Origin: Diplonema japonicum | Lineage: Eukaryota; Protista; Euglenozoa: Diplonemea | Reading direction: 5' to 3' | Assembly: GCA_964019335.1 (NCBI GenBank) | Contig: OZ025689.1 | Location: 310,001-374,000 of the forward strand | DNA: 64,000 bases | Shown here: positions 3,964-41,333 of the stretch, piece after piece | Numbering within the stretch: position 1 is the first letter of the stretch | How the letters are laid out: every line of letters begins with the position of its first letter | Notes under the pieces: model-generated | Databases searched by the model: none | Seen by the model: only the letters and a program-made list of their open reading frames with translations | What the model was told of the DNA's origin: nothing | Translations under genes and position numbers: made by a program

Positions 3964-4541
3964 CTCGGTCTTTTAACGTCAAGGTGACAAAGAGAAAAAA
4001 AAGAAGAAAAAAAGAAGCGGAATGAGATGCGTGGATGAAAGAACAAAGAGCGAAAACAAGGGAGTGGGTGTAGGGGGTTTCCTTCGAAACTGTGCTTTAT
4101 TTCTCTTTATTGCCTTCGGTTATCTACTCAGCCCTCGATTTCTGAGTACCCCGCATCACCTCCACAGCAAGACCTCAAGAAGCTAAGAATGGCTGTTGTG
4201 GTTGTGAAAAAGAATGAGGTGAGTTGATACCCATAGCTGCTGTTAAACACCCTGCAATAAACGGAAGCCAATGCTGCGTCTCGCTTCCCCAATTGAAAGA
4301 AATACCCAGACTTCCCACACTGTGGTTTTTATTCCCTTTAATTCTCTACATACAACACAAGATAAACCCCCTGGCCGAAATGGCTTGTCATGAACCCAAA
4401 GTTGTTCCGCACCAGCTTTACACTCTTCTTTCCATCTACTCGCATCTGAGACAGCACTTGAAGGACGCCAAAGAACGCCAAGTATGCCCCAAGAATAGAC
4501 TCTGCAACCTTAGCATCTGTGAGTGTCAGTTAGTTAAAAAA

Positions 4542-4614
4542 CACCTCCCGCGGGGCTCGAACCCGCGACCACAAGGTTAAGGGCCTTGCGCTCTACCGAC
4601 TGAGCTAGGGAGGC
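4542..4614 (-). tRNA. tRNA-Lys(CUU)
   Basis: GCCTCCCTAGCTCAGTCGGTAGAGCGCAAGGCCCTTAACCTTGTGGTCGCGGGTTCGAGCCCCGCGGGAGGTG folds as a cloverleaf with A and B boxes, followed by a T6 Pol III terminator (4536-4541). Confidence 0.92.
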
Positions 4615-4626
4615 TGTGTTTTCTAG
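4600..4626 (-). repeat. 27-bp target-site duplication of E1 (second copy at 11912-11938)
   Basis: ctgagctagggaggctgtgttttctag is identical at 4600-4626 and 11912-11938. Confidence 0.95.
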
Positions 4627-5331
4627 TTTTTTTTTTTTTTTTTTTTTCAAAATACCAATAGGTGCCACCATGGGGGAGCAACACCTGGGAAGGGGAAAGG
4701 TGAAGGGAAGCATGGAAATATTACAGGGAGGGCGAAGACCAGTTCTTCTGCAATCAGATGGAGCTGTGGACTCCGCCAACCCGTGCACCTGTTTGGAACA
4801 GCCGAAGAGGGCTGAATTACTTTAATTCCAAGCCGCGTAGACCTACGTGACTCGGACGGGGACCTTGACCCCAGTTCGTCGTTTTTCTCGACTGGGACCT
4901 CTGGTGACCGGAACTGGCCCCGGTCGCCCCCTCGAGAGGGATTTGCTCCATTGAGCGAAACATGAAAGGGTGAGAGTAAAATCTCGTGTGCGCATGGGGA
5001 TGATAGGGGAAGCATTTGCTCTCCCCGCTGCACTCCGGCTGGCGGGGGGAGGGGATGGCCGTACCACACTCGTTCGTGCGAAGATGAGAGGACTCATCTG
5101 GGCAACTTCAGAGTAGGCCGGGCCATCCGTTTTTGACTACAATGTCAGGGCACACGATAACAAGAGGATGTTAATTTTAAAAATTTAAAAGTTTAAAAGG
5201 GGACGGGCATACTGGTAAGAGAAAGGCCAGACGCCGGATGATGATAAAGAAAAGGATGAGAGGGAGTGGAAGAGAGGGGAAGGGAACGTAAGCACTAAAA
5301 GAATTGAAATGTTGATCTCACCCTACTCACT

Positions 5332-8300
5332 TCAGCGCAACACGGGGGCCGCAGGGCCGGCGTCAAGGGAGACAGCCGGCGGGATGAACGAAGGGGCAGC
5401 GGTACCTGCCGTTGCCGCAGACGGCGACGTGAAGACCCCGGATCTGGCCCAGTCAAGCAAGCCAGAGTCGGCGATGAGGGTGAATACCTGCGTCACGCGT
5501 TTTGACAGGCACTCCACCAGCGAGGGGCGTCCATTGGGAGCGTCGAGCGAACCCCGTCCAACCACAGCGCACCCCCCAACAACGTGCTCCCTGGACATCT
5601 TTGCTCCACACGCTGGGCAGCTGAGCTCAGCCTTCTTCCTGTTCGGTCCAGCCGCCTGCAGGAAGCCGAAGAAGAGAGCGGAGTGCCCTACCCTCAGCCG
5701 CGAGATGACCGTCTCCGCTAGCCTGGGGAGGGACTGGGGGAAGCACGCCGCTCGGAGCCCCGTGGCCCTCGCGTATCTCGGGGCCACCTCCCCGACAATG
5801 ACCGCAGACCTCTGCTGAATCTGGCGACGGACCAGGGCCCTGACCGACCTGTAGTCGAGAGAGGGGCGAGTCAGCTCGCGCTTCGTGCCCTCCCCGGCCA
5901 GCCTGTCTGCCGCCTCGTTGCCAGGAACCCCGCAGTGGGACGGCACAAACTGGAGAATGACTGGTGCACCTTGTGCACGTGCCGCGGCCACCAGCAGTTC
6001 CCAGGTCTCGTGGTCGAGCCTCTCCCTCTGCCGCGAAGGACCTGCCCTCAGCTGATCAAGGAGAGAGAGCGAGTCGGTACAGATCGACAGCCGGCTGTCT
6101 GCCAACGTGGGGTGCTCGCTCCGGAGCGCGGCCACCATGTCCAGAGCCACCTTGACAGCCAGACCCTCCGCCCGAAAGGAAGAGCAGAAATTGCTGACGC
6201 CGAAGCTCTCGGACACGGGTTCGTGGGGGCGGGGGAGCTGCAAGTAGACCCCGGCGCCGCCCCTCCACCTCTGGCGGTCCCGTACGACAGAACCATCCGT
6301 ATAGGCATGGATACCCGGTGGAAGGGCAGCCAGAGCCTCCACGGCCGCCTTCCGCTTATCCACGTCCGGCGACGAACGCGTGACCCTGCCGGGAAGGGCA
6401 GTTCTGAACTCCACCAGGAACGCGTGCCACGGTGCTACTTTGGGCGAGGCAGTCAGTAGCTCGAAGGTGTCGTACTTCCTGAAGCCTTCCTGCGTCGTCC
6501 ACCCCTGCAGTCCGCAGCGTCGTAGCGCAAGGATACCCGCACGCAGCCACCCATTGCCCATACCGGTCATCCGCTTCTGCTCAAGGACCTCGCGGTGAAC
6601 CGGGGAGGTCCTCCAGCAGAACGACTTCGCCGTCAACACCGCCGCAGCTCCCTCAGCCATCTGTCGGAGGGGTAGCAGACCTGCCTCAGCAACAACCTTC
6701 GCCGTGCCCGAGCCGTGCCAACAACCCGAGATCAGCACCGCCGCTCTCTGGTGGAGCCCAACAAGCTCCTCCACCCTGCTGTCCCTGAGCCTGGCAAAGT
6801 AAACACCCATGCAGTACCGGAGTAGCGGGAGAACGTACGTGAGGTACAGAGATCGGAGCGTGGCCTTCTTGCACCCCCAGGTCGTGCCCGACAGGAGCCT
6901 TAGTACCCTCAGCCTCTTGTCAGCGCTCCTCAGGACATCCCCCGCATGCTCGTCAAACGTGAGCCCAGAGTCTACAGTGACCCCAAGATACTTCGCCGAC
7001 CCACATAGAGGCAAGGGGCGAGCCGCCATGTAACCAATGTCGGACCTCCGGATGGCGGCGGGGATGTCGAAGGACCGTTTGCCACCCGCCTCCACGACCC
7101 GAAAGCCAGACAGCTCACGGACGCCAGACAAGGTCCCACAGGCCCCAACCCCAAGATTAAGGACAGGGTCCTGGAAGGCCCCCGGGCAAAGCGGGACACG
7201 CGACGAAGAGAAGTAGACATTAAGCCGCTTCTGATAGGGAACGCACACTGCCTGCGACTTGCTGGAGCTCAGCAGCATGCCCCGTCTCCCACACCAGCCC
7301 TCAACCGCGTCCATCACAGCCTGGGCCCCTCGCTCAAGACCAGCCAGGTCGCCCTGCCCGGCTGAGACCACCACCGCAACATCGTCGGCATAAAGAACCG
7401 ACAGGTCCGCCATCCCAACCAGCAACCTGGCTAGCTCGTCGACGTAGATGGTGTAAAGGACGGGTCCCAGCACAGACCCTTGGGGCACCCCTCTCCTCAC
7501 CTTCGTCGTCGACCCTCGCGAACGACCCACCGTGACCGCCGCCGTACGACCGCAGAGGAAGGAGCGCGTCCATTCGACGAAGGGCTCAGGGATCCCTTTC
7601 CTCCGCATCATGCCCAAGAGAGCTTCGTGCTGAACCAGGTCAAACGCAGATGAGAAGTCAAACAGCAGGGCAGCCGACAGACGCCGACTGTCTTTGTTCC
7701 TCGACAGGCACCCGGTCAGGGACGCCACCTGCTCCTCCGTGGAGCGGCCCCTCCTGAAGCCAGCCTGGCTGTCGTGGAGACTCTCAACGCCCGACGCGCT
7801 AGAGTCTAGGAGAAAGGTAAGCCTCTCCTCTATCATCCTCTCAAGCAGCTTACAAAGACAGCTAGTGAGACATATGGGACGGTACGATGCAAGCAACGTG
7901 GCGTCCTTCCCTGCCTTCGCCACTGGAACAATCACCCCCTTCTTCCAGGCACCCGGCACGATCCCCGCCTGCCATGAGCGATTGAGGAGCAGAAGTAGAA
8001 CCCCGAGCGAGGGTTGGTCGAGGTGGAGAAGCATCTCCGCGAAGATGCCATCATCACCCGCTGCACTGCGTGTCTTCATCCTTCCCAGACCGCGGGTGAG
8101 ATCATACACCGTAAAGGCGTGGCACCCAAGCACGTTCGTCGAAGGAGCTACGTCCACCGCGTCCCCATCACCACCCTGGCCGTAGAGCTTGCCGAAGTGA
8201 GCCCCCAGGCGGTCGGCTTTCGCCTTGTCCGTCACGAACCTCCCCTCGAGAATGGGAAGGTGCGGTCTGCGGTGTCTGCCGTCCAGCTTCTTCACCGCCC

Positions 8301-9498
8301 TAAACGCAGACCCGAGGTCCTTGCTCCGACTGAGGTCAGCCGCCATCTCACCCCAGGCCGCGCGCTTCGACTCGGTCATGAGTTGGTTTACCTCCTTGAC
8401 CTTCGCCTTGTAGACCGCCGCCACGCTGTCGTCCTCAGTCTCAGCCGACTTGAGGAAGCGATCCCGCAGGGCGTTCCGTTCTTCGAAGGCGTCTTCGAGT
8501 TCGGCCGTCCACCAGGGGGTCGGGCCTCGTCGCACTCCGCAAAGCGGAATGTGGTCGTCAGCTGCATGCAGAAGAGCCTCTGTAACCTCCTTCGTGAAGG
8601 AGTCAATGTGGGCCTTCGTGTCGATCTTGGTCAGAAGGGCAGCGGCGGCCGCGGTGAAGTCGTCCCACCTGGCCTTTTTGAAGTTCCAGGTAGGGCAGGG
8701 TCGCTCCGAGCAGTAGGCGTCCTCAAGCGGCAGGCGGAAGGAAACCGGGCTGTGATCAGAGCCCCACGTCCCCAACGTCCTCGGCTCCAGTTCCGCACAA
8801 CGTCCCACCACCAGGTCCAGAACGCGTGGCGGTGAGTCCCGCGTCGGCTCGTCTCGGTTGTTGTAGACGGTGTAGCCGTGGGTGTCAAGCCAGTCCCTGA
8901 CCACGTTCCCCCTTTCGTTGGGCGTTGTCACCTTGGCATCCCAAGAGCTGTGGTGTGCGTTGAAGTCGCCAGCAACGATCGTGTTCTTCCCCACAGGTAG
9001 GCTGCCCGGCCGTAGGTACTCGGGGTCCCTTGTTCCTCTGCTTATACTCACAGGCGTGAGGTACACGTTGGAGAGGGTGACCGGGACGCGCTTCACACAG
9101 GAGATCCTCACGTCTAATCGCTCAGTGACACTGTCACCTTCAGGGAGTACGAAAGGAGCTTCCTCCGAGGCAAGGCAGTCACGGACATACGTGATGACAC
9201 CACCGCCTCTCGTCGCAGAGCCGTCCGTCACCGGTGTTGTGCGGTCCCTCCTGTAGGACGTGTATCCAGGCAGGTATGGTGTCTCATGCCCCTCCCTAAG
9301 GTGTGTCTCCTGGATCATAATGATATCCAGCGTCAGTAGGACAGCGTGGTAGGACACGGTTGACCACTTGGCGGCAAGACCGTTGCAGTTCCAGGACAGG
9401 ACCCTGAGTCCCTTCGGCTTCGGGGGTGGGAGCTTCTTAGGTGGACCGGGGTTCGTCTCAACCAGCCCAAGCAGCCCCAGCAGGTCCCTGGCCGACAT
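5332..9498 (-). CDS. E1 ORF2: 2A-like peptide, AP endonuclease, reverse transcriptase, RNase H, C-terminal Cys/His motif (frame open upstream to the UGA at 9640-9642)
   Basis: APE motifs SWNCNG, IQETH, GDFNAH, GSDH. RT motifs YRPICLTS, QAGFR, DFSSAFD, GVPQGSVLGP, YADD, KYLGV. RNase H motifs YTDGS, CTDS, VPSHCGVPGNEAAD. C-terminal CPAC...H. Confidence 0.95.
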   Translation of the reverse strand: MSARDLLGLLGLVETNPGPPKKLPPPKPKGLRVLSWNCNGLAAKWSTVSYHAVLLTLDIIMIQETHLREGHETPYLPGYTSYRRDRTTPVTDGSATRGGGVITYVRDCLASEEAPFVLPEGDSVTERLDVRISCVKRVPVTLSNVYLTPVSISRGTRDPEYLRPGSLPVGKNTIVAGDFNAHHSSWDAKVTTPNERGNVVRDWLDTHGYTVYNNRDEPTRDSPPRVLDLVVGRCAELEPRTLGTWGSDHSPVSFRLPLEDAYCSERPCPTWNFKKARWDDFTAAAAALLTKIDTKAHIDSFTKEVTEALLHAADDHIPLCGVRRGPTPWWTAELEDAFEERNALRDRFLKSAETEDDSVAAVYKAKVKEVNQLMTESKRAAWGEMAADLSRSKDLGSAFRAVKKLDGRHRRPHLPILEGRFVTDKAKADRLGAHFGKLYGQGGDGDAVDVAPSTNVLGCHAFTVYDLTRGLGRMKTRSAAGDDGIFAEMLLHLDQPSLGVLLLLLNRSWQAGIVPGAWKKGVIVPVAKAGKDATLLASYRPICLTSCLCKLLERMIEERLTFLLDSSASGVESLHDSQAGFRRGRSTEEQVASLTGCLSRNKDSRRLSAALLFDFSSAFDLVQHEALLGMMRRKGIPEPFVEWTRSFLCGRTAAVTVGRSRGSTTKVRRGVPQGSVLGPVLYTIYVDELARLLVGMADLSVLYADDVAVVVSAGQGDLAGLERGAQAVMDAVEGWCGRRGMLLSSSKSQAVCVPYQKRLNVYFSSSRVPLCPGAFQDPVLNLGVGACGTLSGVRELSGFRVVEAGGKRSFDIPAAIRRSDIGYMAARPLPLCGSAKYLGVTVDSGLTFDEHAGDVLRSADKRLRVLRLLSGTTWGCKKATLRSLYLTYVLPLLRYCMGVYFARLRDSRVEELVGLHQRAAVLISGCWHGSGTAKVVAEAGLLPLRQMAEGAAAVLTAKSFCWRTSPVHREVLEQKRMTGMGNGWLRAGILALRRCGLQGWTTQEGFRKYDTFELLTASPKVAPWHAFLVEFRTALPGRVTRSSPDVDKRKAAVEALAALPPGIHAYTDGSVVRDRQRWRGGAGVYLQLPRPHEPVSESFGVSNFCSSFRAEGLAVKVALDMVAALRSEHPTLADSRLSICTDSLSLLDQLRAGPSRQRERLDHETWELLVAAARAQGAPVILQFVPSHCGVPGNEAADRLAGEGTKRELTRPSLDYRSVRALVRRQIQQRSAVIVGEVAPRYARATGLRAACFPQSLPRLAETVISRLRVGHSALFFGFLQAAGPNRKKAELSCPACGAKMSREHVVGGCAVVGRGSLDAPNGRPSLVECLSKRVTQVFTLIADSGLLDWARSGVFTSPSAATAGTAAPSFIPPAVSLDAGPAAPVLR

Positions 9499-9639
9499 CC
9501 GTTCAAGTAAGGAAGGGATCAAGGAAGGGAGGACGTCGTACAAGTGATGTGGAAGGTGTCTCCTCGGCTGTATGCGCGGGAGACCAGGAGAGGGGGCGTG
9601 GTCGTCGATCTGACGCCCCCCCTGCTCAGCGGGACCCCT

Positions 9640-11868
9640 TCAATTGGCAGGGGCGGGGGCCGGGCCCACAGAGGCTGCCCGTCCACGGCCGGCCCCGTTG
9701 GGGGAAGCAGAGTCGCCAGCCAGCGACTGGGCGCGTCCCCTTCCGCCCCCTTGCTCCGTCGATGTCGGGTAGGGGCCTGGCGTGCTTACGCCCTGCGCCT
9801 GGTGCCCCTTCGTCCCTGCCTTGGACCCAGCCTTGCCGCCCTTGCCCTTCCCAGCCACTGCCGTCCGCCCAGCTCCGTCTGCAGATGACGCCGGCGCGCC
9901 AAGTGACGCTGCCATCCTCTCCTGGAGGTCGCGGACCGTCGCCTGCAGACCGTCGATGGTCGCCTGCATCGACTGGATCAGCGCGAGGAGCGCCGGGACC
10001 TCTGGTTCCGGTGCGGGATTCTTCTTCTGGGAGTCACGGGGAGGTGTCGTGGTCGGGGAAGCCGCAGAGGAGACCGGAGTCACAGTGCCAAGTGGCGGAG
10101 GGGCAACCGAGCTCGGTGGAGATGACCACGGATTGGTGCTCGGCAGCCCTGTGGACTGCACCGTGGGGCCAGGGGCCGGCGTCGGCGTCTGGGCCGTGGT
10201 TGCCGCAACCGGCGTCCGAGCCGCGGGTGGAGCCTTCTTGTTGGTGCGGGGCGGGAGCGTGACGCTCGGGTGGTCTTCCGCGTCGTGCAGTCGAACGAGA
10301 CGAGAGCCGAAGAGCCATGTCCTGGCCTTGGGGGGCGGGGCGTCGGCGACGATGAAGAACACGAGTTGCCTCGTGCCCTGGAACGCCGTGTCAGAGCGTC
10401 GGATGATGGACGACGGCTTCCAACCGATGTGGTCCATCATCCCGTCGAAGGCTGCCCTGGTAACAGACAGCGGGGCTCCGGTGAGCAGGTACCGACGCTT
10501 TGTCCTCTGCTTGGCGAGGGCCTCCCTCAGACGCTGCTCCGTCTCCGGCAGGCACCTCACGGTCCAACCCTTGCGATGGGCCACCCCCAGGGACAACCCG
10601 CCCAGTGCCTTCGCCAGCTGGAAGGCCTCCGCCCTCCCCTCCGCTACGATGGGCACGTAGGTGTACCCCCCGCGCCGCTCGGTCGTCCTGACCATGCAGC
10701 CGTCGCCCGAGGCCCGGAGTACCGCATGGACGGATGCCGCCGGGAGCCGCAGGCCCACCTCGTGGCTCCAGTGCCGCGCCCGCGGCTCGTTCCCGTCGAT
10801 CTTCTTCGGGCGGAAGATCGCCTGCTCCTCCACCGCCACGCCCTGGGTCGCGACGAGGTCCCGAACCCTGGCCTTCGCCGCGTTCACGCTGTCAGCTTTC
10901 ACGCTGACGTACACTACCTCAGAGCCGCCATCAAAAGAAGCGAGTGGGGTGTAGGAGGGGGGGTTCGACCCGACCGAGAAGGTGTGCACGGCCTTGTGCA
11001 CGACACGCTGGCCGGCGAGTACGATGACGGTGCATGGGGTGGTCGAACCGGCAACCTCCGTCAAGAGGACGAAGGTCAGGGAGGCCGTGGGCCTCGCAGT
11101 GCGAATCGCGTCCACCTGCTGGAGGTCGTCGAGAGCGACGACGGCGCGGGGCACCTCCTCAGGGGGAGCAGTGTTGGTGTAGATGGGGGCGTCCCACGTG
11201 TCGGGGACCAGATCCCAGTGAGGCTCCGGGGCCGGTGCGGGAGCGGGGGCCGTGTCCTTCTCGTCGGTGTCAGAGTCCGACATGGGGAGGGCGGTGTCGC
11301 AGGCAGCGGCAGTGAGGACGGCAGTAGACCACACGGCAGCAGTAGAGGCTGGAGCAGGCGCAGGAGCAGGGGAGTCGGCAGCAGCAGGCGCAGGAGCAGT
11401 GGTGTCGGCAGCAGCAGGTGCAGGAGCAGGGGAGTCGGCAGCAGCAGGTGCAGGAGCAGTGGTGTTGGCAGCAGCAGGTGCAGGAGCAGTGGCAGTGGTG
11501 TCGGCGGCAGCAGTCCTCATCCTCGCCCTCCTGACCTCTGGCGTGTCGACCGTGAACGAGGTGACAACGCCCGGCGACTCGCTAATTAAGACGACAGAGT
11601 CGTCGGAGCCCGAAGCGGCGGCGGTGGCAGCGTCAGCAGCTGCTGCCTTCTGTCTGGCCCTTCTGGCCGCCTTCTTCCCTTGCCCGGGGGAGGGTGTCAC
11701 CACCGGCGTGACCCCCTCTGCGCGCTTCCTCTCCACCTCCTCGCGCGTGCGCTTCGCCCTGGCGGCGGCGTTGTCCTTTACCCGCTCACCGCGGGCTTTC
11801 TCCAGGATTTCTTCCGTCCTGGACTTGTGGTGAGCGGGCCTCTTTTTCTTCTTGTTGGAGGTCGACAT
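9640..11868 (-). CDS. E1 ORF1 (742 aa): basic N-terminus, Ala/Pro repeats, conserved central domain, C-terminal coiled coil
   Basis: ATG lies directly after the (GAAAA)n leader. The core WDLVPDTWDAPIYTN...LHDAEDHP is conserved with ORF1 of E2 and E3. Confidence 0.85.
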   Translation of the reverse strand: MSTSNKKKKRPAHHKSRTEEILEKARGERVKDNAAARAKRTREEVERKRAEGVTPVVTPSPGQGKKAARRARQKAAAADAATAAASGSDDSVVLISESPGVVTSFTVDTPEVRRARMRTAAADTTATAPAPAAANTTAPAPAAADSPAPAPAAADTTAPAPAAADSPAPAPAPASTAAVWSTAVLTAAACDTALPMSDSDTDEKDTAPAPAPAPEPHWDLVPDTWDAPIYTNTAPPEEVPRAVVALDDLQQVDAIRTARPTASLTFVLLTEVAGSTTPCTVIVLAGQRVVHKAVHTFSVGSNPPSYTPLASFDGGSEVVYVSVKADSVNAAKARVRDLVATQGVAVEEQAIFRPKKIDGNEPRARHWSHEVGLRLPAASVHAVLRASGDGCMVRTTERRGGYTYVPIVAEGRAEAFQLAKALGGLSLGVAHRKGWTVRCLPETEQRLREALAKQRTKRRYLLTGAPLSVTRAAFDGMMDHIGWKPSSIIRRSDTAFQGTRQLVFFIVADAPPPKARTWLFGSRLVRLHDAEDHPSVTLPPRTNKKAPPAARTPVAATTAQTPTPAPGPTVQSTGLPSTNPWSSPPSSVAPPPLGTVTPVSSAASPTTTPPRDSQKKNPAPEPEVPALLALIQSMQATIDGLQATVRDLQERMAASLGAPASSADGAGRTAVAGKGKGGKAGSKAGTKGHQAQGVSTPGPYPTSTEQGGGRGRAQSLAGDSASPNGAGRGRAASVGPAPAPAN
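11340..11510 (-). repeat. 30-bp coding tandem repeat (APAPAAAD[T/S][T/P]) in E1 ORF1
   Basis: Repeated gcagcagcagg(c/t)gcaggagcag units; the same repeat occurs in E3 at about 28695-28860. Confidence 0.8.
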
Positions 11869-12374
11869 GATTCTTTTCTTTTCTTTTCTTTTCTTTTCTT
11901 TTCTTTCCTTCCTGAGCTAGGGAGGCTGTGTTTTCTAGTTTTTTTTTTTTTTTTTTTTTCAAAATACCAATGCAGGGCCGCCATGGAGAGCAACACCTGA
12001 GAAAAGGGAAAAAAAAGGTGAAGGGAAACCATGGGGAAATAGGGAGGGCAATGGACCAGGCTTCTGCAAGCAGGAGGAGCCCTGGTCCCCCACCAACCCG
12101 TGCTCTGCTTTGGGACAGCCGAAGAGGGCTGAATTACATTTTTCCCTCAGTCAAGTGAGAGAAAAACGGGGGCCTACCTTCCAGCTGGATGTCCTTCTTT
12201 GGCTGGAACCTCCGGCGGAAAGCCCCCCAGGGAGGTATTGCTCCTATTGAGCGAATCATTGGTGAGTGTGAAAATAAAAAAAAGGGGAAATGGGAAACAG
12301 TGAGAGGAAGGTGAAGGAAGGGAAAGGAAAGTGGAAAACACAACATTTCACTTTACACACACGCGGGCGATCCC

Positions 12375-15300
12375 TTAGCGCAGCACGGGGGCCGCGGGAC
12401 CGGCGTCAAGAGAGACCGGAGGAGGGGGCGGCACGTTTGAAGGTGCAGTGACGTCTGTAGACGCCAGGGATGATGGCGAGGTGAACAGTCCGGAGCGTGA
12501 CCAGGCGAGCAGGCCAGACTCAACAACGAGGTCGTAGATCTGGGTCACGCGTCTCGACAGGGAGAAGGCTAGGGAGGGAGTACCAGCAGGAGTGTCGATC
12601 GCCCCCCTCCCGATCACAGGGCACCCACCGACAACATGCTCCCTGGACATCGGTGCTGCGTGGCAGGCTGGGCACCGGAGCACACCCTTGTGCTTCCTGT
12701 TCGGGCCAGCAGTCTGCAGGAAGCCGAAGAAGAGAGCCGAGTGACCAATCCGCAGCCGCGAGATGACCGTTTCAGCTTGTCTGGGGAAGCCAAGGGGGAA
12801 GTGCGCGGACCGAAGCTCGGTCGCCACCGCGTAGTTGTGGGCGAGGGATGTTATGAGCTCCGCGGACCTCCGCACCACCCACCGTCGCACCAGGGCCCTC
12901 ACTGATCGGTAGTCAAGGGAGGGCCTGTCCTGCTTCCGCTTCGTTCCCTCCCCGGCCAGAGCGTCAGCCTTCTCGTTCCCGTCCACCCCACAGTGGGAGG
13001 GCACAAACTGGAGGACCACCGGTGTCCCCTGCGTGCGCGCCGCGGACACCAGCCGGCTCCACGTCTGGTGGTCGAGCTTCTCCCTCTGTCGCGTTGGGCC
13101 AGCTCGCAGCTGCTCGACGAGGGAGAGGGAGTCGGTGCAGATCGACAGCGGGGACTTCGCCAGCGAAGGGTGTGTTTTTCGGAGGGTAGCCACCATATCC
13201 AGCGCCGTTTTCACAGCCATGCCCTCTGCCCGAAAAGATGAACAGAAGTCGTTGACGCCATGGCACACAGACACAGGGGTCAGGGGGGGAGGCAGCTGCA
13301 GATAAACCCCAGAGCCACCTTTCGCCTTCTGTCCGACCTGTACAACCGAGCCATCCGTGTAGGCATGGATGCCCGGGGGGAGAGCCGCAAGAGCAGCCTC
13401 GGCCGCCTTCCGCCTGTCCGCGTCTGGCGACGATCGCGTGACCCCGCCGGGGAGGTCAGTCCTGAAGTCGACCATGCCTGTCTGCCACGGGGCCGCCAGG
13501 GGCGTAGCCGACAGGTACTCGAAGTGCACCTTTGGTTCCAACCCGCATCGACGCAGTGCTTGGTAGCCAGAGCGCAGCCACCCACACCCCAGCCTGTTCG
13601 CCTGCTTCAGCTTGACCGTCTCCCTGTGAACCGGGGAAGACTGCCAGCAGAAGGCCTTCGCCGTCATCGTCGCCGCAGCACCCTCCGCCATTCTTTCGAG
13701 GGGAAGCAGTCCTGCCTCTGCTAGGAGCTTGTACCCTCCGGAGCCACTCCAGCAGCCCGTGATCAGCACCGCCGCCTCCTGGTGAAGCCCAGCCAGGTCC
13801 TTCCTCCCGACATCATCGAGCCTGCTGTAGTAGACCCCCATGCAGTAGCGCAGCAGCGGGAGGATGTACGTAACGTAGAGAGACCGCAGAGTGTCCCTCT
13901 TGCTGCCCCAGGACGTGCCAGACAAGAGCTTCAGCACCCTCAGCCTTTTGCTGGCCCGCCGTAGGATGTCCTGTGCGTGTTCACCGAACGTGAGCCCAGA
14001 GTCCACCGTAACCCCAAGGTACCTCGCGTGTTCAGACAGAGGCAGGGGACGGGCCGCAACGTAATCCACGTCGGGCCGTCGCACGGCTGCATGCATGTCC
14101 CGCACGCAGCGGATCCGCACACCACCCGCCTCCACAACCTGAAGGCCCGCCAGCTCCTGGTCCCCGGAGATCGTGCCATCGGCGTTCACCCCCAGGCCGA
14201 AGAGTGGGTTCTGGAAGGCACCTGGCTGAAGGGGGACTCGTGACGAAGTGAAGTAGACCCCGAGACGTTTCTGGGGGGGGACGCAGACTGCCTGCGTCTT
14301 GGACGTGCTCAGCAGCATGTCACGCTCCCTGCACCAGTCCTCAACCGCATCCACCACTGCCTGCGCCTTCCGCTCCAGCCCAGCCACGTCCCCTTGTCCA
14401 GAGGAGATCACAACCGCCACGTCGTCGGCGTAGAGCACCGAGACGTCCGCCAGTCCCTCCAGTCTCCTGGCGAGTTCGTCGACGTAGATGGTGTACAGGA
14501 TGGGACCCAAGACAGAGCCCTGGGGGACACCCCGTCGCACCTTCGTCGTCGACCCCCTCGACCGTCCAATCGTGACCGCAGCAGTACGGCCGCATAGAAA
14601 GGACCGCGTCCACTCCACGAAGGGTTCGGGGAGACCCTTCCCTCGCATCTTGTCCAGCAGGGCACCATGGGGCACCAGGTCGAAAGCAGAAGAGAAGTCG
14701 AACAGCAGAGCGGCCGAGAGACGTCGATCGTCTTTGTTCCTCGACATGCACTCAGTGAGGGTTGCCACCTGCTCCTCCGTGGAGCGGCCGCGTCTGAAAC
14801 CAGCCTGGCTGTCGTGGAGTCCCTCGACTCCCGTCCCGTCCGCGTCAAGAAGAAACGTGAGCCTCTCCTCGATCATCCTCTCCAGCAGCTTGCAGAGGCA
14901 GCTGGTCAGGCAGATCGGCCGGTAGGAAGCCAAGAGAGTCGCATCTTTTCCAGGTTTCGGTACCGGGACGATCACTCCCTTCTTCCAGGCACCGGGGACG
15001 ACACCCATCAGCCAGGAGCGATTGAGGAGTAGAAGGAGGACACCGAGGGAGTCCGAGTTCAGGTGTAGGAGCATCTCCGAGAAGATTCCGTCTTCCCCGG
15101 CCGCGCTGCGCGTCTTCATCCTTCTCAGGCCGCGGGTGAGGTCGTCCACGGTGAACGCTTGACACCCGAGTCTGCTTGCAGAAGGAGCGGCGTCCTTCGA
15201 GTTCCCGTCACCACGCCTGCCGTAGAGCTTAGCGAAGTGCGCCCCCAGCCGGTCGGCCTTCGCCTTGTCCGACACAAATCTTCCCTCGAGTACAGGAAGG

Positions 15301-16523
15301 TGTGTCTTTCGGTGCCTGCCGTCCAGCTTCTTCACCGCTCTGAACGCAGCCCCGAGGTCCTTGCTCCGGCTGAGGTCGGCCGCCATCCTTCCCCATGCCT
15401 CACGCTTCGTCTCGTCAAGGAGTCGGTTGACTTCCTTCACCTTCGCCCTGTACTCCTCCACCACGTCCGCCTCTTGAAGCAGGAGTTCGCGCAGGGTGTT
15501 CCGCTCTTCGAAGGCGTCCTCGAGCTCAGCAGTCCACCAGGGGGTCGGGCCACGTCGCATCCCACAGAGGGGAATGTGGTCGTTCGCCGCAGTCAAAAGG
15601 GCTTGTGTAAACCCCTTCGTGACAGAGTCAATCGGAGCCGCCGTGTCAACACCAGCAAGCAGGCGGGCAACAGCAGCAGTGTAGTCATCCCATCTGGCTT
15701 TTTTGAAATTCCAGGTGGGGAAGGGGCGCTCCGAACGGTAGACGTCCTCAAGAGGCAGGTGAAAGGATACGGGACTATGATCGGAGCCCCACGTGCCCAG
15801 CGTCTTCGGCTCAAGCTTCGCGCAGCGCCCCACAACCAGGTCCAGAACGTGTCGTGACGAGTCCCTCGTCGGTTCGTTGCGGTCGTTGTAGACGGTGTAC
15901 CCGTGGGTGTCCAGCCAGTCCCTGACCACGTTCCCCCTCTCGTTCGGCGTCGTCACCGTGGCGTCCCAGGAGCTGTGGTGAGCATTGAAGTCACCCGCTA
16001 TGACTGTGTTCTTCCCCATGGGAAGGCTGCCAGGCCGCAGGTACTCAGGGTCCCTCGTGCCTCTGCCCGCGCTTACCGGTGTAAGGTAAACGTTGGAGAG
16101 AGTGATCGGCTCACGCTTCTCGCAGGAGATCCTCACATCCAGTCTCTCAGTGACACAGTCCCCAGCCGGGAGTACGTGCGGAACCTCCTCCGAGGCAAGA
16201 TCGTCGCGGACATACGTGACAATACCACCACCCCTCGTCGCAGTGCCGTCAGTCACCGGTGTCAACCGATCCCTCCTGTATGACCTGTACCCAGGCAGGT
16301 GTGGCGTGTCGTGCCCTTCCCTCAGGTGCGTCTCCTGTATCATGATGATGTCCAGCGACAAGAAGTCAGCATGGCGAGATACGACGGTCCATTTCGCAAC
16401 GAGGCCGTTGCAGTTCCACGAGACAACCTTGAGACCCTTAGGCGACGGGGGCGGCAGCTTCTTGGGTGGGCCAGGGTTTGTTTCGACCAGCCCAAGCAGC
16501 CCCAGCAGGTCCCTGACGGACAT
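12375..16523 (-). CDS. E2 ORF2: 2A-like peptide, APE, RT, RNase H (1382 aa, intact)
   Basis: Same motifs as E1 ORF2, collinear along its whole length. Confidence 0.95.
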   Translation of the reverse strand: MSVRDLLGLLGLVETNPGPPKKLPPPSPKGLKVVSWNCNGLVAKWTVVSRHADFLSLDIIMIQETHLREGHDTPHLPGYRSYRRDRLTPVTDGTATRGGGIVTYVRDDLASEEVPHVLPAGDCVTERLDVRISCEKREPITLSNVYLTPVSAGRGTRDPEYLRPGSLPMGKNTVIAGDFNAHHSSWDATVTTPNERGNVVRDWLDTHGYTVYNDRNEPTRDSSRHVLDLVVGRCAKLEPKTLGTWGSDHSPVSFHLPLEDVYRSERPFPTWNFKKARWDDYTAAVARLLAGVDTAAPIDSVTKGFTQALLTAANDHIPLCGMRRGPTPWWTAELEDAFEERNTLRELLLQEADVVEEYRAKVKEVNRLLDETKREAWGRMAADLSRSKDLGAAFRAVKKLDGRHRKTHLPVLEGRFVSDKAKADRLGAHFAKLYGRRGDGNSKDAAPSASRLGCQAFTVDDLTRGLRRMKTRSAAGEDGIFSEMLLHLNSDSLGVLLLLLNRSWLMGVVPGAWKKGVIVPVPKPGKDATLLASYRPICLTSCLCKLLERMIEERLTFLLDADGTGVEGLHDSQAGFRRGRSTEEQVATLTECMSRNKDDRRLSAALLFDFSSAFDLVPHGALLDKMRGKGLPEPFVEWTRSFLCGRTAAVTIGRSRGSTTKVRRGVPQGSVLGPILYTIYVDELARRLEGLADVSVLYADDVAVVISSGQGDVAGLERKAQAVVDAVEDWCRERDMLLSTSKTQAVCVPPQKRLGVYFTSSRVPLQPGAFQNPLFGLGVNADGTISGDQELAGLQVVEAGGVRIRCVRDMHAAVRRPDVDYVAARPLPLSEHARYLGVTVDSGLTFGEHAQDILRRASKRLRVLKLLSGTSWGSKRDTLRSLYVTYILPLLRYCMGVYYSRLDDVGRKDLAGLHQEAAVLITGCWSGSGGYKLLAEAGLLPLERMAEGAAATMTAKAFCWQSSPVHRETVKLKQANRLGCGWLRSGYQALRRCGLEPKVHFEYLSATPLAAPWQTGMVDFRTDLPGGVTRSSPDADRRKAAEAALAALPPGIHAYTDGSVVQVGQKAKGGSGVYLQLPPPLTPVSVCHGVNDFCSSFRAEGMAVKTALDMVATLRKTHPSLAKSPLSICTDSLSLVEQLRAGPTRQREKLDHQTWSRLVSAARTQGTPVVLQFVPSHCGVDGNEKADALAGEGTKRKQDRPSLDYRSVRALVRRWVVRRSAELITSLAHNYAVATELRSAHFPLGFPRQAETVISRLRIGHSALFFGFLQTAGPNRKHKGVLRCPACHAAPMSREHVVGGCPVIGRGAIDTPAGTPSLAFSLSRRVTQIYDLVVESGLLAWSRSGLFTSPSSLASTDVTAPSNVPPPPPVSLDAGPAAPVLR

Positions 16524-16664
16524 CCTCCCGAGTAGGGTGGGGATCAGTGCAGAAAAGTCGGTGAAGAAACAGAGAGGTAGGAGTCTCCTGGGGAGGATGC
16601 GAGGGAGACTAGGAGAGGGAGCATGGTCGTAGATCTGCTGCTCCCCCTGTTCTGCGGGGCCCCT

Positions 16665-19520
16665 TCAATTGGATGGACCCATGGAGGCAGAGCGCCCCTT
16701 GACCCCATTGGTGAAGAGATCTTTGGTCTCCGCGAACGACCTGGCCCGCCCCCTCGTACCCAGGTTCGTCACCGCAGCCTCAGAGGTCGTAGCGAGAGGA
16801 GGAGCCCCCTTCTTCCCCTTCCCCTTCCCTTTCCAGACACTGTCGTGTGTCGTCGTCGCCCCCGGTGTAGGGTCCCGCGGCACTGCCGTTCCCGTCGTCA
16901 GCGTGGCCGCCTGCGGCAGGAGGAGGCGGAGCGTCGTCCGCAGATCGGAGATCATCTCCTGCTGAGAGTCGATCGTCCTCTGCAGCCCGACGATCGACTC
17001 CTTCAGCGTGGCGACGAGCTCAGTGAGAGCGGCGACCTCAGGCGACCCGGAAGGGACTCCCTCCTTGTTTCCCGCAGACACGTTGCGGGGCGGTGTAGGG
17101 GACGTCACAGTGTCGAGCTGGGGGGGAGCCACCGAGCTCGGTATGGACGCCCACGGGCTGGTGGGAGGAAGCCCAGTTGCTTTCACCGCAGGGCCAGTCT
17201 CCGAGGGTGTCGACGCCGATACAGGTGCCGGGTCAGGTACAGGTGTAGTAGGCGCAGGTGCAGGTACATGAGAAGATGTGGGTGCCGGGGTCGAGGACGT
17301 TGCAAGCGCAGGTGCAGATGCAGGTGTCGTCCTGTTGATGAGAGGGGGCGGCTTGACGGTCGGGTGGTCGTCCGCATCACGGAGACAGACAAGGCGCCCC
17401 CCAAGGAGCCACGTCCTGGACTTCGGGGGCGGGCTGTCGACGACGATGAAGAACACGAGTTGCCTCGTGCCCTGGAACATCGTCTGCGTGCGTCGCAGGA
17501 CGGAGGATGGTTTCCAACCGATGTGGTCCATCACTTCGTCGAAGGCCGCCCTGGTGATGGACGGCGGGGCCCCGGTGAGCAAAAACTTGCGCTTCGTACG
17601 CAGTTTTGCGAGGGTTTCCCGGAGCCGCTGTTCCGTCTCCGGTAGGCACCGCACAGTCCATCCCTTACGGTGCGCCACCCCGAGAGACAACCCACCCAGC
17701 GTCCCCGCAATCCGAAAGGCATCCGCCCTCCCTTCCGCCACGATGGGTACATAAGCGTACCCCCCGCGTCTCTCCGTCGTCCGCATTAAGCACCCGTCCC
17801 CGGACCGGCGCAGGACGGCGTGGACGTGTGCTGCTTGCAGGCGCAGTCCCACCTCGTGGGTCCAGTGCCTCGCCCGCGGTTCCTCCTCACCGAACTTCCT
17901 TGGGCGGAAGACCGCACGATCCTCCATCACCGCGCCCTGAGCCTTGGCGAGCTCCAGGACCCTGGCCTTCGCCTCCTTCAGGCTGTCTGCACTGACACAG
18001 ACGTAGACGACCTCCGATCCGCTGTTGAAGGTGGAAGGCGGGGTGTAGGTGGGGGGGTCCAGCCCGAACGTGGAGACGTGGACCCTCCTGTTCACTGCGC
18101 GCGACCCAGAGACCATGACAATCTCGCTGGGGGTGGTGACACCGGGGACCTCTGTCATAAGGACAAAGGTGATGGATGCCGTAGGTAACGCGGAGCACAC
18201 GACCCCCATTCCGGAGGGATCGTCGAGCGCAATGACAGCGCGGGATGTTTCCGTCGGGGGGGACACGTTGGTGTAGATCGGGGCGTCCCATGTGTCTGGC
18301 ACCAGGTCCCATCGCGGGGTTGTGGAAGGGGCAGGGGCAGGGTCGTCCTCCATCTCCTCAGGGCCAGAGCTGGTGTCAGAGTCTGAGCTGAGGAGGAGCG
18401 TGCCTTGGTCTGTTGACGCGTTGGCGGAAGCGTTCGCGACTGCTTCGTCCTCGACCTTCTGGGCATCTGCCTTCTTGGCGGCCGCCAACCTCAAAGCTTC
18501 CTCCTTTTTGGCAGCGGCTGCGGCGGCTTCCTTTTCGGCGGCGGCGGTGGCTGCGACCTTCTTCTTCTCCTCGGCGGCGGCGGCTGCGGCTGCGGTCTCC
18601 TTCTCGGCGGCGGCGGCTGCAGCTTGCTTCCTGGCGGCGTCGGCTGCGGCCTTCCTCTCGGCGGCGGCGGCGGCAGCGGCTTTCTTCTCGGCGGCGGCCT
18701 TCTCCTCGGCGGCGGCGGCGGCTGCTGCTTTCTTCTCGGCGGCGGCGGCGGCTGCGGCTTTCTTCTTCTCGGCTGCAGCGGCTGCGGCTGTAGCCTTCTT
18801 CTCCTCGGCTGCTTTCATCTCGGCCGCAGCACGCGCAGCCTCCTTCTCCTCTGCCGCAAGTCGTGCAGTAGACCGCTCGCGCAGAGCCTTCTCCTCAGCC
18901 TCGACTGCTCTGCGAGCAGCCTCCACACCAGCCACGCGTGCAGCTTCCGTCTCGGCTGCCATTTTGACAACAGCAGCATCAGCCACCTCCTGCGCAGCCT
19001 TCATCTAAGCAGCTATTTCTGCAGCTACCACGTCGGCCGACTCGCGTGCAGCTTCCAAATCAGCAGCGATTCCCGCGAGTTCGACGTCGGCCGCAGTGCG
19101 TGCGGCTTCGAGGGGGTGTGTGGCGTCAGCTATGTGTGCGGCTTCGGCGGCAGCGTCAGCGCGCGCGGCTCTGGCGGCCTTCCTCCTAGCTTTTTTGCTG
19201 GAGGTCGGGGTGGCGACGCTGGCGTCAGGCGAAACCGGCCTTTTGACGGAGCCGGTCGGGGTGGAGGCGACAGGTGTCGCTGGGCCGGCTGTAGCGGCGG
19301 CGGCGTCGGGCGTGAGGAGGTCAATTACGGTGACCACCCCCGTCATCTTCTCCCGGTGCTCCGGCGTCAGGAGCTGCCCCAGCTCCCCGGCTGCTCCAGC
19401 GCTGCGGAGCATCCTCTCCACCCGCCGCTCCTCCCTGGCCTTGGACTGGGCCAGCTGCGTGCTGGCCCCGTTCCCTTCCGGCTTTGCCTTCTCCTTGTGC
19501 TTGTCTTTCTTCTTGCCCAT
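16665..19520 (-). CDS. E2 ORF1, interrupted by one in-frame TAG at 19005-19007; long (A5EKK)-like helical expansion
   Basis: ORFs 19005-19520 and 16665-19004 are contiguous and in frame. The core is homologous to E1 ORF1. Confidence 0.8.
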
Positions 19521-19964
19521 TTTTCTTTTCTTTTCTTTTCTTTTCTTTTCTTTTCTTTTCTTTTCTTTTCTTTTCTTTCGTGTTTTCTAGAAGCCGTGAA
19601 AAACGTTAGTGTTGTTTTCGATTCTAATGATAACCCGGTGTCATACCTTGTATGTACAAAATAAATGCAGCCACACCTGCCCCTGCATTGACAAGACCTG
19701 AAAGGGACACCAAGAATGTCAGCAATTTGTCGATTTTTTTCATTTTCCCTTTTCTTCCCCCCCACCTCCTATTTCCGTCCTCGTCGGTGCGAGTGGCGAA
19801 GAGAACGGGACAGCGAAAGGGATGAGCACGGAGACTCCACCACAACAGAAAAGCGAAAGAGAAAAGAATACGAGAAATTGAAAAGCCCAACCACAACCCC
19901 TCACCATTATCCCCGCGTTCTTTTAAAAAAAAAATGTTTGACTACTTTTCCATGTTGACCAAGG

Positions 19965-27373: not shown

Positions 27374-28311
27374 TTTAGTGCTCGACCTCTAATCTGAAGA
27401 GAAATTAATATTTGCTAAAAGGAAAAAAAAGCCAAGTCAAACATTGGATATAAAAAAAGGGGGGGCAGGGATGTGGGAAAGAAATAAAATAAAAAACATC
27501 TTTGTGTTTATTCACTTAAAAAAAGGAGGGGGGGGGATTCATTTTATAAAAAGGAAACCACCTTTGTGACCCATTGCCATTTTCTAAAAGGCTAGGGCTC
27601 GGGAAGGAAAAAAAGGGAGGTCCTCTTTTTTTGCTGTTCTATTACTTAACTTTTAATTTGGTGGTGCTCGGGGTAAGAGGAGGAAGAGATATTTTTCTAG
27701 TTCACGGCCATTCTAAGCAAAGTGTCAATAATTGCATCATTTTTCAGGATGTTCGCTTGTGTCGTGTGGATCTTGTTCAGCTGCGTGTGTGTTTTTTTTT
27801 TTTTTTTTTCAATTTAAAAAAATGAGATAAGAACAGCAGGTGCTGCCAGGATGTTTAAATCTTTACCGAGCCGCGCCGCAGCTGGGTCAAGCTGTCGCCA
27901 GAAGATCGAATGCGTTGAAGGAGGCTTTGCTCAGGTTTTGAGGCTTTGTTCGTATTTGACAAACCCTTCACCAGCGTTGGTGCAGGATGCGTTGCGGACC
28001 GCTTTCGTGGATCCACGACAGAAAAGTGGAAACGGTGGGCCTACAGTAAGGCTCGAGGCCAGCTTTTTAAGTCTCGAAAATGAGAGGCTTTTGTACAAAG
28101 ACCAAGAAGATGCTGCAAAGCTGGGTGGAGAACAAAAAATCCACGGTAATCAAAGACTTGAGAGACAGGGTCGCATGTCGAAGGATAAGCATGGAGGAAC
28201 TGAAGCATGCGCTGAGGCAACTGAAGAAAAGGAAATCCAACAATGGTATCCAAACTTTTCATGTATCACATCTCTCCGACATTTCTAGATTATCATTGCC
28301 CAGATCTGGCA

Positions 28312-34300: not shown

Positions 34301-34705
34301 ACTCGCCCCTCTCTCGACTACAGGTCGGTCAGGGCCCTGGTCCGTCGCCAGATTCAGCAGAGGTCTGCGGTCATTGTCGGGGAGGTGGCCCCGAGATACG
34401 CGAGGGCCACGGGGCTCCGAGCGGCGTGCTTCCCCCAGTCCCTCCCCAGGCTAGCGGAGACGGTCATCTCGCGGCTGAGGGTAGGGCACTCCGCTCTCTT
34501 CTTCGGCTTCCTGCAGGCGGCTGGACCGAACAGGAAGAAGGCTGAGCTCAGCTGCCCAGCGTGTGGAGCAAAGATGTCCAGGGAGCACGTTGTTGGGGGG
34601 TGCGCTGTGGTTGGACGGGGTTCGCTCGACGCTCCCAATGGACGCCCCTCGCTGGTGGAGTGCCTGTCAAAACGCGTGACGCAGGTATTCACCCTTATCG
34701 CCGAC
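28312..34705 (+). mobile_element. E3: near-identical copy of E1 (family A), frameshifted and lacking the family-A 3' end
   Basis: Preceded by TSD agatctggca (28302-28311) and an A/G-rich leader; ATG at 28343. ORF1 and ORF2 are nearly identical to E1 with small deletions. Homology stops at ...FTLIAD (34705). Confidence 0.92.
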
Positions 34706-36067
34706 AAACGGGGGAGGCCTCCGGGCCTCTTTTTAAAAAAAGGGGGTCCGATTACACACACACATGAACATGTAGACGAACGCGGTGTGTGTGGTGGCTG
34801 CCCACCTCCACGGTGGTGGTCCCTGGGCAACGCGCAGGTGGTGAAGGTTGCGCGGCTGAGAGGCAGCTCGAGAGGAGCAGGGGAACGGTGTTGCGTTGGG
34901 CGGCCGAGGGCCGGAGCCGGAGCGCCGTGTTGGATGGCATCCCCTGGGGAAGCCTCCTGCACGCCAGAACGAGGACCGGATCCGGAGACGCCGTTTGATG
35001 GTTTTCCTGGGGAAGCTGACCTGAACGCCCGAGCGAAGTGGCCTGAGCGTGGGGAGCACTGTTTGCCGACAGAAAACAAGATTAATGCAAAATGTCCAGA
35101 GTGCGCAACAGTGTTTTCCACGTGAGGGGTTCGGTTTCAAAGTGGGTCCTCCAGCCACCAGAGTTGTAGGCTGGGTACCCGCGGAGAGAGAAGCGGAGCG
35201 GAGGCGTCAAGTACGGTGGACCACCTCAAGGGATGTAAGTCCATTGTGTGACACAGTCTCTCGGTGAAGGTCCGACTTCTGGTGGGTAGGCAGGCAGAAC
35301 CGCATAGGGGTGTAAGGAACACCATTGTGTGACCTGTCGCACACGGGGAAAGCCCAAGGCCGGTGGGTTATCTGCCAATGTGTCCCCCTCCTCTACTTCG
35401 CCTCTCACAACCTCTTCCTCCCCGCTGACGATTGACTCCACAGCACTCGCCGGCCTACCTGGTGCGCCCGCGTCATTACGCGATAGGGAGTCTCGTTGGA
35501 AAAACATCTTTCGCAGCTGAGAAGGGGGGTTTTTTTTTAGAAATAGTAACCAGTAATTCTTTTTTCCCCCTCCCCCATTGGTTTCCCTTTCTTTTTATTT
35601 TCCCTACCAGGCTCCTTTTCTAGTTATGCATTCCTCCCTTCTTTGTGGAAGTTGAGTTCTGAACTTGACTTTTCCTTTTACATTTCCTTTTCAAATTTAT
35701 ATTTTAGGCTCCCACAGCCCAACAAAACCAGCAGATGGTGGGGTCCCTGTGGCTAGATAAATCAAAATTAGGGATCTCATCGCCGTCCTTTAATATTTGG
35801 GGTTGTCTTTATTTGGTGACAGCCGAAGCCTTCGAGGCCCAAGAGCTGCGTGGCGGGGGAATGGGGAAAAAATAAGAAAGGTGGATGTCGGGGGCCCCAG
35901 GAAAATATACAAGAGGTCGAGCAAACGAGCAAGAGGTCCCCCCCGATATGGCTCAGTAAGAGAGACTGTTATTAACCTTCCCTTCCCAATTTTTATGGTT
36001 TCAACTTTCTCCGCCCCCCATCCCCCCCGCCTGGTAGTGGAATAATAATTATTAATTATTATTAAAA
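34706..36067 (+). mobile_element. E4: degenerate 3' portion of a different non-LTR family with a (TTA)n-A tail
   Basis: 3' UTR resembles E6 (ggctccc..agcccaacaa; atggctcagtaa.agagactg; cgcctggtagtggaata). Decayed CxxC fragments (KCPECATVF). Followed by TSD agatctggca at 36068-36077. Confidence 0.7.
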
Positions 36068-36077
36068 AGATCTGGCA

Positions 36078-39113: not shown

Positions 39114-39120
39114 AGATCTG

Positions 39121-41134: not shown

Positions 41135-41206
41135 TCCTCGGTAGTATAGAGGTCAGTATATCCGCCTGTCACGCGGATGACCCGGGTTCAATTCCCGGCC
41201 GGGGAA
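41135..41206 (+). tRNA. tRNA-Asp(GUC), the targeted copy
   Basis: TCCTCGGTAGTATAGAGGTCAGTATATCCGCCTGTCACGCGGATGACCCGGGTTCAATTCCCGGCCGGGGAA folds as a cloverleaf; a T-run lies downstream. Confidence 0.92.
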
Positions 41207-41261
41207 TTCTTTTTGCCAAGTAGATACAAAATACGCCCGGGTTTATTAAGTCAAAAAAGAA

Positions 41262-41333
41262 TTCCCCGGCCGGGAATTGAACCCGGGTCATCCGCGTGAC
41301 AGGCGGATATACTGACCTCTATACTACCGAGGA
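41262..41333 (-). tRNA. tRNA-Asp(GUC), identical inverted copy with an unoccupied upstream flank
   Basis: Exact reverse complement of 41135-41206, with its own T-run terminator. Confidence 0.92.

Follow-up and report, generated by a model that had tools for sequence, protein, structure and literature searches.

The 64,000-nucleotide (nt) stretch of the Diplonema japonicum genome analysed here (assembly GCA_964019335.1, contig OZ025689.1, positions 310,001 to 374,000 of the forward strand; hereafter the window) harbours three related retrotransposons without long terminal repeats (non-LTR elements), E1, E2 and E3, which were found by comparing the window with itself. In E1 and E2, open reading frame 1 (ORF1) and ORF2 lie in one frame across a single UGA kept in both elements, and the passage from ORF1 to ORF2 is the subject of this report. 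E2 is 75% identical to E1 across ORF2, and the two subfamilies have diverged to about 0.9 synonymous substitutions per site (dS). Beyond the TGA, the ORF1 frame continues as ORF2 for 1435 codons in E1 and 1429 codons in E2. The two elements and their reading frames are as follows.

About 4627-11911, minus strand: element E1, limits from the self-comparison
9640-11868, minus strand: E1 ORF1, 742 aa, from the ATG at 11868 to the TGA; a core of no known family with low-complexity ends
9640-9642, minus strand: E1 UGA between ORF1 and ORF2, context CCAAT-TGA-AGGGG
5332-9639, minus strand: E1 ORF2 frame, with linker, 2A-like motif, APE endonuclease, reverse transcriptase (RT) and RNase H
About 11939-19579, minus strand: element E2, limits from the self-comparison
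16665-19520, minus strand: E2 ORF1, from the ATG at 19520 to the TGA at 16665-16667; a premature TAG at 19005-19007 in this copy only
12375-16664, minus strand: E2 ORF2 frame, with linker, APE, RT and RNase H

An earlier note on this DNA, made from the sequence alone, had described the in-frame arrangement, the shared stop context and 47 open codons between the stop and the first ATG, and all of these were found again. The E1 UGA was unchanged in contigs of three of the four runs covering it. The contigs of these runs are of unknown kind, and one run may be the source of the window sequence itself. Among the listed contigs, those of X1, X6 and X9 show an intact E1 junction, save for one X6 contig of low depth that has a loose end and a gap of 6 nt; the E2 junction was intact among the listed contigs of X2, X7 and X11. 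The premature TAG of E2 reads AAG in contigs of three of four runs (the fourth has no cover there) and corresponds to Lys in the protein P0009, so that it is specific to the copy in the window. The E2 ORF2 protein is near-identical by eye to P0001 and the E2 ORF1 protein to P0009; both are labelled Diplonema japonicum and carry an identical Trinity gene number. A low-depth third variant, about 90% identical to E2 ORF1 and with indels, was also seen at 18210-18836 in X2, X7 and X11.

UGA is an ordinary stop in the host. Eleven of the 14 long ORFs examined end in TGA, both ORF1s included, and host ORFs use TGG; the ORF2 terminators are TGA in E1 and TAA in E2. The transcript-derived ORF1 proteins P0009 and P0010 terminate at the UGA of the junction. 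A reassigned code, with UGA as a sense codon, was discarded, as long ORFs of the host have no TGA within them and use TGG, and several of them close with TGA.

ORF1 has a core of 326 aa (10240-11217 in E1 and 17334-18311 in E2, minus strand), which is 68% identical between the elements and under purifying selection, with a ratio of non-synonymous to synonymous substitution rates (dN/dS) of 0.26; the C-terminus carries many indels. ORF1 gave no Pfam match, and no relative beyond the E2 family was found among 1.84 billion representatives. The E2-family protein was the sole match among 7994 scored, and a profile search returned two matches, the second being a repeat protein judged spurious. No ORF1-ORF2 fusion of the E1/E2 family was found in these ORF1 searches. 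The fold predicted from the two-sequence alignment is unreliable (pLDDT 41), with ACT/KH-like Foldseek matches at template-modelling (TM) scores below 0.2 of the query, and Atlas matches at 0.79-0.80, two of them with RRM, serve as leads only. These are weak hints that the ORF1 core may consist of tandem alpha/beta (RRM/ACT/KH-like) domains.

Linker, hairpins and 2A-like motif downstream of the UGA

The first 66 codons of the ORF2 frame contain the following features.

9499-9639, minus strand: E1 linker, 47 Met-free codons in the ORF2 frame; dN/dS 0.21 against E2, no indels
16524-16664, minus strand: E2 linker, 47 codons, with stem-loop 1 at 16614-16648 and stem-loop 2 at 16583-16609
9589-9623, minus strand: E1 stem-loop 1 (+17 to +51 from the stop), 10 shared pairs, two compensatory changes against E2
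9558-9584, minus strand: E1 stem-loop 2 (+56 to +82), six shared invariant pairs, no covariation
9469-9481, minus strand: 3' arm (+159 to +171) of a predicted long-range helix whose other arm is +1 to +11; a single one-sided change, weak
9442-9498, minus strand: E1 conserved AUG (codon 48) and 2A/StopGo-like peptide ending VETNPG|P; 18 of 19 residues as in E2, dN/dS 0.05
16467-16523, minus strand: E2 conserved AUG and 2A-like peptide

The linker figures rest on the comparison of E1 with E2, that is, on two independent sequences. The linker peptides of the earlier note and its five synonymous codon pairs proved right. The ratio for the whole linker compares with 0.16 for codons 1-27, 0.15 for codons 28-47 (where dS is saturated) and 0.19 for the rest of ORF2. 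Twenty-one changes are synonymous (36.9 sites) and 20 are non-synonymous (104 sites), and the 41 substitutions fall 11, 10 and 20 at the three codon positions. Of the 47 residues, 30 agree between E1 and E2 in the ORF2 frame; the other sense frames reach 22 and 20, and the opposite strand 21-26. In a permutation test, the 41 substitutions were moved to random positions of the same base and identical residues were counted; at least 30 were reached with p 0.0018 for the whole linker, 0.0046 with two blocks and 0.0075 with stem positions frozen. The linker stayed without a stop in 38-62% of permutations, so its openness alone is unremarkable. It has no indel in 141 nt, compared with seven gap openings in 314 aligned columns of the 3' untranslated region (UTR; p ~0.04). 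From this substitution pattern, the linker is likely translated in the ORF2 frame.

The earlier note had also described a stem that begins 16 nt downstream of the stop and differs between the elements by two compensatory G-C to A-U changes, and the stem was recovered at those positions in both elements. E1 and E2 share 20 helices of at least 8 bp (eight in the ORF2 frame, four in the ORF1 core and eight in antisense). Two of these helices reach 10 bp and two show two double changes; stem 1 alone belongs to both pairs. Within the ORF2 frame (4271 aligned nt), it is the only shared 10-bp helix among the eight. The lowest consensus energy of 229 overlapping 70-nt windows in 1.2 kb belongs to the window from +16, which holds stem 1. 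The longest stretch of identical nucleotides in the ORF2 frame, 30 nt within codons 48-66, includes the 3' arm of the long-range helix. No conserved pseudoknot was found in a scan of shared helices of at least 6 bp, and no other shared helix of at least 6 bp begins between +5 and +15. Rfam returned nothing credible at the junction, with sub-threshold DUF3800-XI matches on the 2A-coding hairpin. Stem 1 is probably real and may have a role at the stop.

The peptide of codons 48-66 is M-S-x-RDLLGLLGLVETNPG|P, and 11 residues separate it from the endonuclease. The motif LLGLVETNPG|P is the best conserved of the segments compared. Leucines at -13, -12 and -10 provide the leucine-rich helix expected between -19 and -10. 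With leucines at -13 to -10, skipping or a reduced output is favoured, and the three leucines of E1 and E2 fit active eukaryotic 2A-like peptides (PMC13405545). L1Tc/Ingi elements carry a 2A peptide at the same place, upstream of the APE (PMC3708506). Among the best 120 of 166 RT relatives, a recognisable APE start was present in 48, and 13 of these 48 possess a 2A-like motif upstream of it, eight of them canonical. In seven of the 13 the skip site is preceded by 68-117 residues, a length similar to the 65 codons that separate the UGA from the skip site in E1 and E2, and the other six start at a Met 9-27 residues before it. The closest relatives, P0002 and P0146 (labelled Diplonema ambulator), start with GDVHxNPGP-type motifs, and in P0002 the N-terminus is duplicated and contains as many as three NPGP/HPGP motifs. 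The earlier note had missed the motif; with it, the likely product shifts from a fusion protein to released ORF2 protein (ORF2p). StopGo activity of this Leu-for-Asp variant is the least certain step, with a probability that we put at or a little under even.

Proposed readthrough and other possible routes to ORF2

According to the reading that we favour, most ribosomes would terminate at the UGA and yield the ORF1 protein (ORF1p), and a minority would insert an amino acid there and go on through the 65-codon leader. These would then either skip at G|P, releasing ORF2p, or make a fusion protein. With skipping, three products would be expected: ORF1p, small amounts of ORF1p-X-leader, and free ORF2p whose first residue is Pro. 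Such an arrangement would supply many ORF1p and few ORF2p from one RNA, and an excess of ORF1p over ORF2p is thought to be needed by such elements (PMC3894237). The leader itself may be the ancestral N-terminal leader of an Ingi element, whose own start was lost once ORF1 had been acquired upstream. The probability that a minority of ribosomes reads through the UGA into the linker is even or slightly better, and that of a low ORF2p:ORF1p ratio arising in this way is close to even. That stem 1 stimulates readthrough is about half as probable as readthrough itself. The complete scheme within 66 codons, in which hairpin-assisted readthrough would set the amount of ORF2p and a non-canonical 2A would free it, is possible and, taken whole, rather unlikely. 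Readthrough is the simplest route to a translated linker; restart at a near-cognate codon or at the AUG of codon 48 (AUG48) is less probable. A UGA-A stop context has a precedent in kelch (PMC3159437).

Several observations weigh against this reading. The figures come from two independent sequences only. When permutation is confined to 30-nt blocks, the linker signal is not significant (p 0.066). Codons 1-7 carry three changes, all synonymous (p 0.36), and since this is not significant, the sequence does not fix where translation enters the linker. Synonymous sites are not suppressed, unlike in alphavirus elements; synonymous difference per site (pS) is 0.44 in codons 1-27 against a mean of 0.52, and 24% of ORF2 windows are as low, a comparison of two sequences with little power. 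Single-sequence folds are no more stable than shuffles (z -1.86 to +0.62 in seven folds), and E1 has a competing fold. The 16 nt between the stop and stem 1 exceed the 7-12 nt at which known stimulators start (PMC3159437), and the entry channel of the ribosome accommodates about 11-12 nt (PMC13517186). Thus, of the stimulator proposed in the earlier note, the conservation and covariation stood, and the spacing did not fit the systems it had cited. The sequence GLVETNPG|P misses the core (G/H)D(V/I)ExNPG|P by one substitution, Leu for Asp, a form termed 'Class X' in 10.64898/2026.09.24.754024. In the screen of that source, 139 of 1969 single-substitution 2A variants were highly active. Leu at -7 occurs in none of the 12 other 2A-like motifs, and the closest Diplonema ambulator relatives carry His for Glu. 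The Tca2 retrotransposon of Candida albicans has a similar gag-UGA-pol junction with a 3' structure, but it is an LTR element, and its junction directed no readthrough in yeast reporters (PMC2194720), which calls for caution with E1 and E2. The conserved AUG48 is a further point of this kind.

ORF2 could instead start at AUG48, through reinitiation or on its own trans-spliced mRNA, with the linker kept as RNA structure or splice signal; this we consider unlikely. Besides the AUG shared by E1 and E2, the AGs at +76/+79 are conserved and preceded by a stretch rich in pyrimidines (21-26 of 30); splicing there would give a 5' UTR some 64 nt long, near the mean of about 70 nt in Diplonema papillatum (PMC10161547). 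Codons 28-47 are just 40% identical, the annotation of both D. ambulator relatives starts at a Met located 14 residues ahead of NPG|P, and L1 and SART1 employ reinitiation (PMC5972666). However, changes favour the third position most strongly upstream of these AGs, in codons 1-27 (10 of 15 changes, p 0.009), and this bias holds with the stems frozen. The tracts in the linker are also C-rich, with 6-9 T in 30 positions; those of host genes count 14-26 T in four of six cases and 9-10 in two. In E2, a scanning ribosome would first meet an out-of-frame AUG at +41, and a Met within the 2A helix is common among relatives. No loose end resembling a spliced leader was found in the linker among the contigs listed, which, given their unknown kind, is no test. 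Less probable still is a stop at the UGA followed by an in-frame, hairpin-held restart at a near-cognate codon, either the AGG after the stop or the ATC of codon 11. It would account for the same coding signature, and AGG (codons 1 and 26) and ATC (codons 11 and 41) are identical in E1 and E2, but AGG is a poor start codon. The stem begins 13 nt after the AGG, near the 14 nt first reported for weak starts (cited in PMC11165317), but the newer optimum is 20-23 nt downstream, with +17 at its edge (PMC11165317). SART1 couples stop and restart via a downstream structure (PMC3708506), but neither E1 nor E2 has an AUG overlapping the stop as SART1 does.

The UGA might also be bypassed in another way, by selenocysteine insertion, by adenosine-to-inosine editing to a Trp codon or by cis-splicing to an AG after the stop, all of which together we hold to be very unlikely. 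In both families the stop is immediately followed by an AG, the A of the UGA is paired within the long-range helix of the consensus fold, and a hairpin near a stop resembles the redefinition elements of selenoproteins. On the other hand, one simple pattern for the selenocysteine insertion sequence (SECIS) gave no match in both 3' UTRs and both linkers, although atypical elements would escape it, and no SECIS family is among the 11 Rfam matches over 4400-36100. Moreover, the ORF1 proteins P0009 and P0010 end at the UGA, and the contigs listed show no joint at the junction, an observation limited to contigs. The least probable explanation, for which we see hardly any room, is a relic, in which a once-single ORF gained a stop and nothing downstream needs the linker. 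Broken copies are indeed common in the window, E2 carrying its copy-specific premature stop and E3 being dead. Nevertheless, the same stop is fixed in two families at dS ~0.9 and present in the main contigs of other runs, purifying selection acts on the ORF1 core, the linker and ORF2, and the duplications and poly(A) tails are intact. The claim of the earlier note that ORF2 is made by readthrough is thus supported in part: translation of the linker is likely, and readthrough is the more probable way into ORF2, ahead of restart at AUG48 or at a near-cognate codon. All in all, the junction is a real, well-formed candidate for readthrough.

Insertion sites and neighbouring sequences

E1 and E2 possess poly(A) tails and target-site duplications (27 bp in E1 and 11 bp in E2), and from these they are two tandem insertions. 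The features that surround the insertions, and the third element, are listed below.

4600-4626 and 11912-11938, minus strand: the two copies of the 27-bp E1 target-site duplication
19580-19590: second copy of the E2 target-site duplication, which equals the first 11 bp of the 27-bp E1 duplication
4542-4614, minus strand: tRNA-Lys(CTT) gene; the poly(A) ends of E1 and E2 both lie 12 bp upstream of its 5' end
28313-34705, plus strand: E3, a dead copy of the E1 family, 98% identical to E1 with 10 deletions; TGA at 30554-30556

The same insertion point near the tRNA-Lys(CTT) gene was used by E2 and E1, which belong to two subfamilies about 25% apart. A preference of these elements for tRNA genes is possible; it is not strict, because E3 and other copies, seen as loose ends of contigs, lie elsewhere. 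One contig of X7 joins 4500-4516 to 19647, without both elements and the tRNA-Lys gene, and is possibly a deletion allele. At their 5' ends, E1 and E2 carry (GAAAA)n before the ATG. Their 3' UTRs, of which about 310 nt are conserved at 67%, close with a conserved pyrimidine tract and CAG at about 4685 and 11997 (minus strand). These tracts hold 27 and 29 pyrimidines in 30 and lie about 37 nt before the poly(A). The tract with CAG could act as a trans-splice acceptor for downstream sequence, including a tandem copy.

E3 differs from E1 by 10 deletions, of 1, 4, 1, 6, 3, 1, 3, 14, 4 and 3 nt, and by no insertion. The earlier note had read the 3-nt deletion at the E3 junction as preserving the frame. 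The deletion is real, but E3 is decayed, and the deletion is uninformative because six of the 10 shift the frame, one of them (1 nt) lying 47 nt upstream of the deletion at the junction. E3 is nested in another RT element, with an 11-bp duplication at 28302-28312 and 36068-36078 (plus strand); an RT-RNase H remnant of this host element, 32% identical, occupies 36080-38377. The last 1.35 kb of E3 (34706-36067) are unrelated to the 3' end of E1, which suggests a template-switch chimera or a nested insert, and a sub-threshold match to a ribozyme like that of hepatitis delta virus (HDV) lies in this part at 34793-34868. Another 5'-truncated element remnant bearing RNase H was found at 39018-40268 (plus strand), and two tRNA-Asp(GTC) genes stand face to face at 41135-41333, with 55 bp between them.

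Relation to known elements and significance

Similar to the Ingi/L1Tc clade, E1 and E2 have APE, RT and RNase H in one ORF, a 2A-like motif just before the APE, a poly(A) tail, target-site duplications and a euglenozoan host (PMC3708506, PMC12278014). According to Odon et al. (PMC3708506), an ORF1 appears to be lacking from Ingi-clade elements, whereas E1 and E2 have an in-frame ORF1 of 742-951 aa under purifying selection. Their 2A core is also non-canonical, unlike that of Ingi/L1Tc, and the 5' ends of E1 and E2 gave no Rfam match to a Pr77/HDV-like ribozyme, a trait of trypanosomatid Ingi. The nearest RT matches are D. ambulator proteins (51-54%), followed by mostly unnamed proteins of up to about 40%, with no labelled Ingi sequence. 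E1 and E2 are called Ingi-like on architecture, not on a tree.

The earlier note had presented readthrough as unusual for a non-LTR element. The idea is not new, because Paramecium Group 3 non-LTR elements have ORF1 and ORF2 in one frame across a stop, and readthrough was proposed for them from consensus sequences (PMC5405496). They form a separate ciliate clade, and in the part of that source available RNase H is not listed and a stimulatory structure, a selection test or a 2A motif is not described. Alphavirus, coltivirus, kelch and gammaretrovirus sites likewise combine a stop and a 3' stem with compensatory changes and gate a polymerase, but their spacer is 7-12 nt, and E1 and E2 show no synonymous drop and no pseudoknot (PMC3159437, PMC13517186). 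In cardioviruses two nearby recodings also set a structural:enzymatic ratio, but StopGo comes first and a -1 frameshift follows, and the system is viral (PMC5009743). SART1 and mammalian L1 have bicistronic non-LTR RNAs with termination-reinitiation, for which SART1 requires a downstream structure; SART1 has an overlapping UAAUG, and in the available text neither is described with a Met-free linker under protein-level selection (PMC5972666, PMC3708506).

Viral contigs gave 20 pattern matches and no relatives. The best 80 of 143 relatives on metagenome contigs are distant (23-42% identity in the best segment), and 11 of the 80 have a 2A-like motif at most 250 residues upstream. None of the 80 has a UGA junction like that of E1 and E2. 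One of them, L055, has a stop-start junction at about 2270-2290, where a 530-codon ORF ends in TAA and is followed by the in-frame ATG of the APE ORF; another, L026, looks like a frameshifted copy. In the literature, with subscription journals and Repbase reports mostly uncovered, neither an Ingi-like element with an ORF1 nor retrotransposon readthrough followed by a 2A was found.

The route by which ribosomes arrive at ORF2 on bicistronic non-LTR RNAs has long been in question, and the experimental answers in the available sources are reinitiation, in L1 and SART1. The junction of E1 and E2 fits into a compact 200-nt cassette for which natural compensatory variants exist, and thereby opens readthrough in a non-LTR element to direct testing; it also offers a natural test of the activity of a Leu-for-Asp 2A core. 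It is a counter-example to the published pattern in which Ingi-type elements carry a 2A instead of an ORF1. If the readthrough reading is true, the junction would be a first programmed readthrough signal for a diplonemid nuclear RNA, as far as the literature search reaches. It would then document the capture of a new ORF1 by an Ingi element that had a single ORF led by a 2A, and the reuse of its old leader as a readthrough linker.

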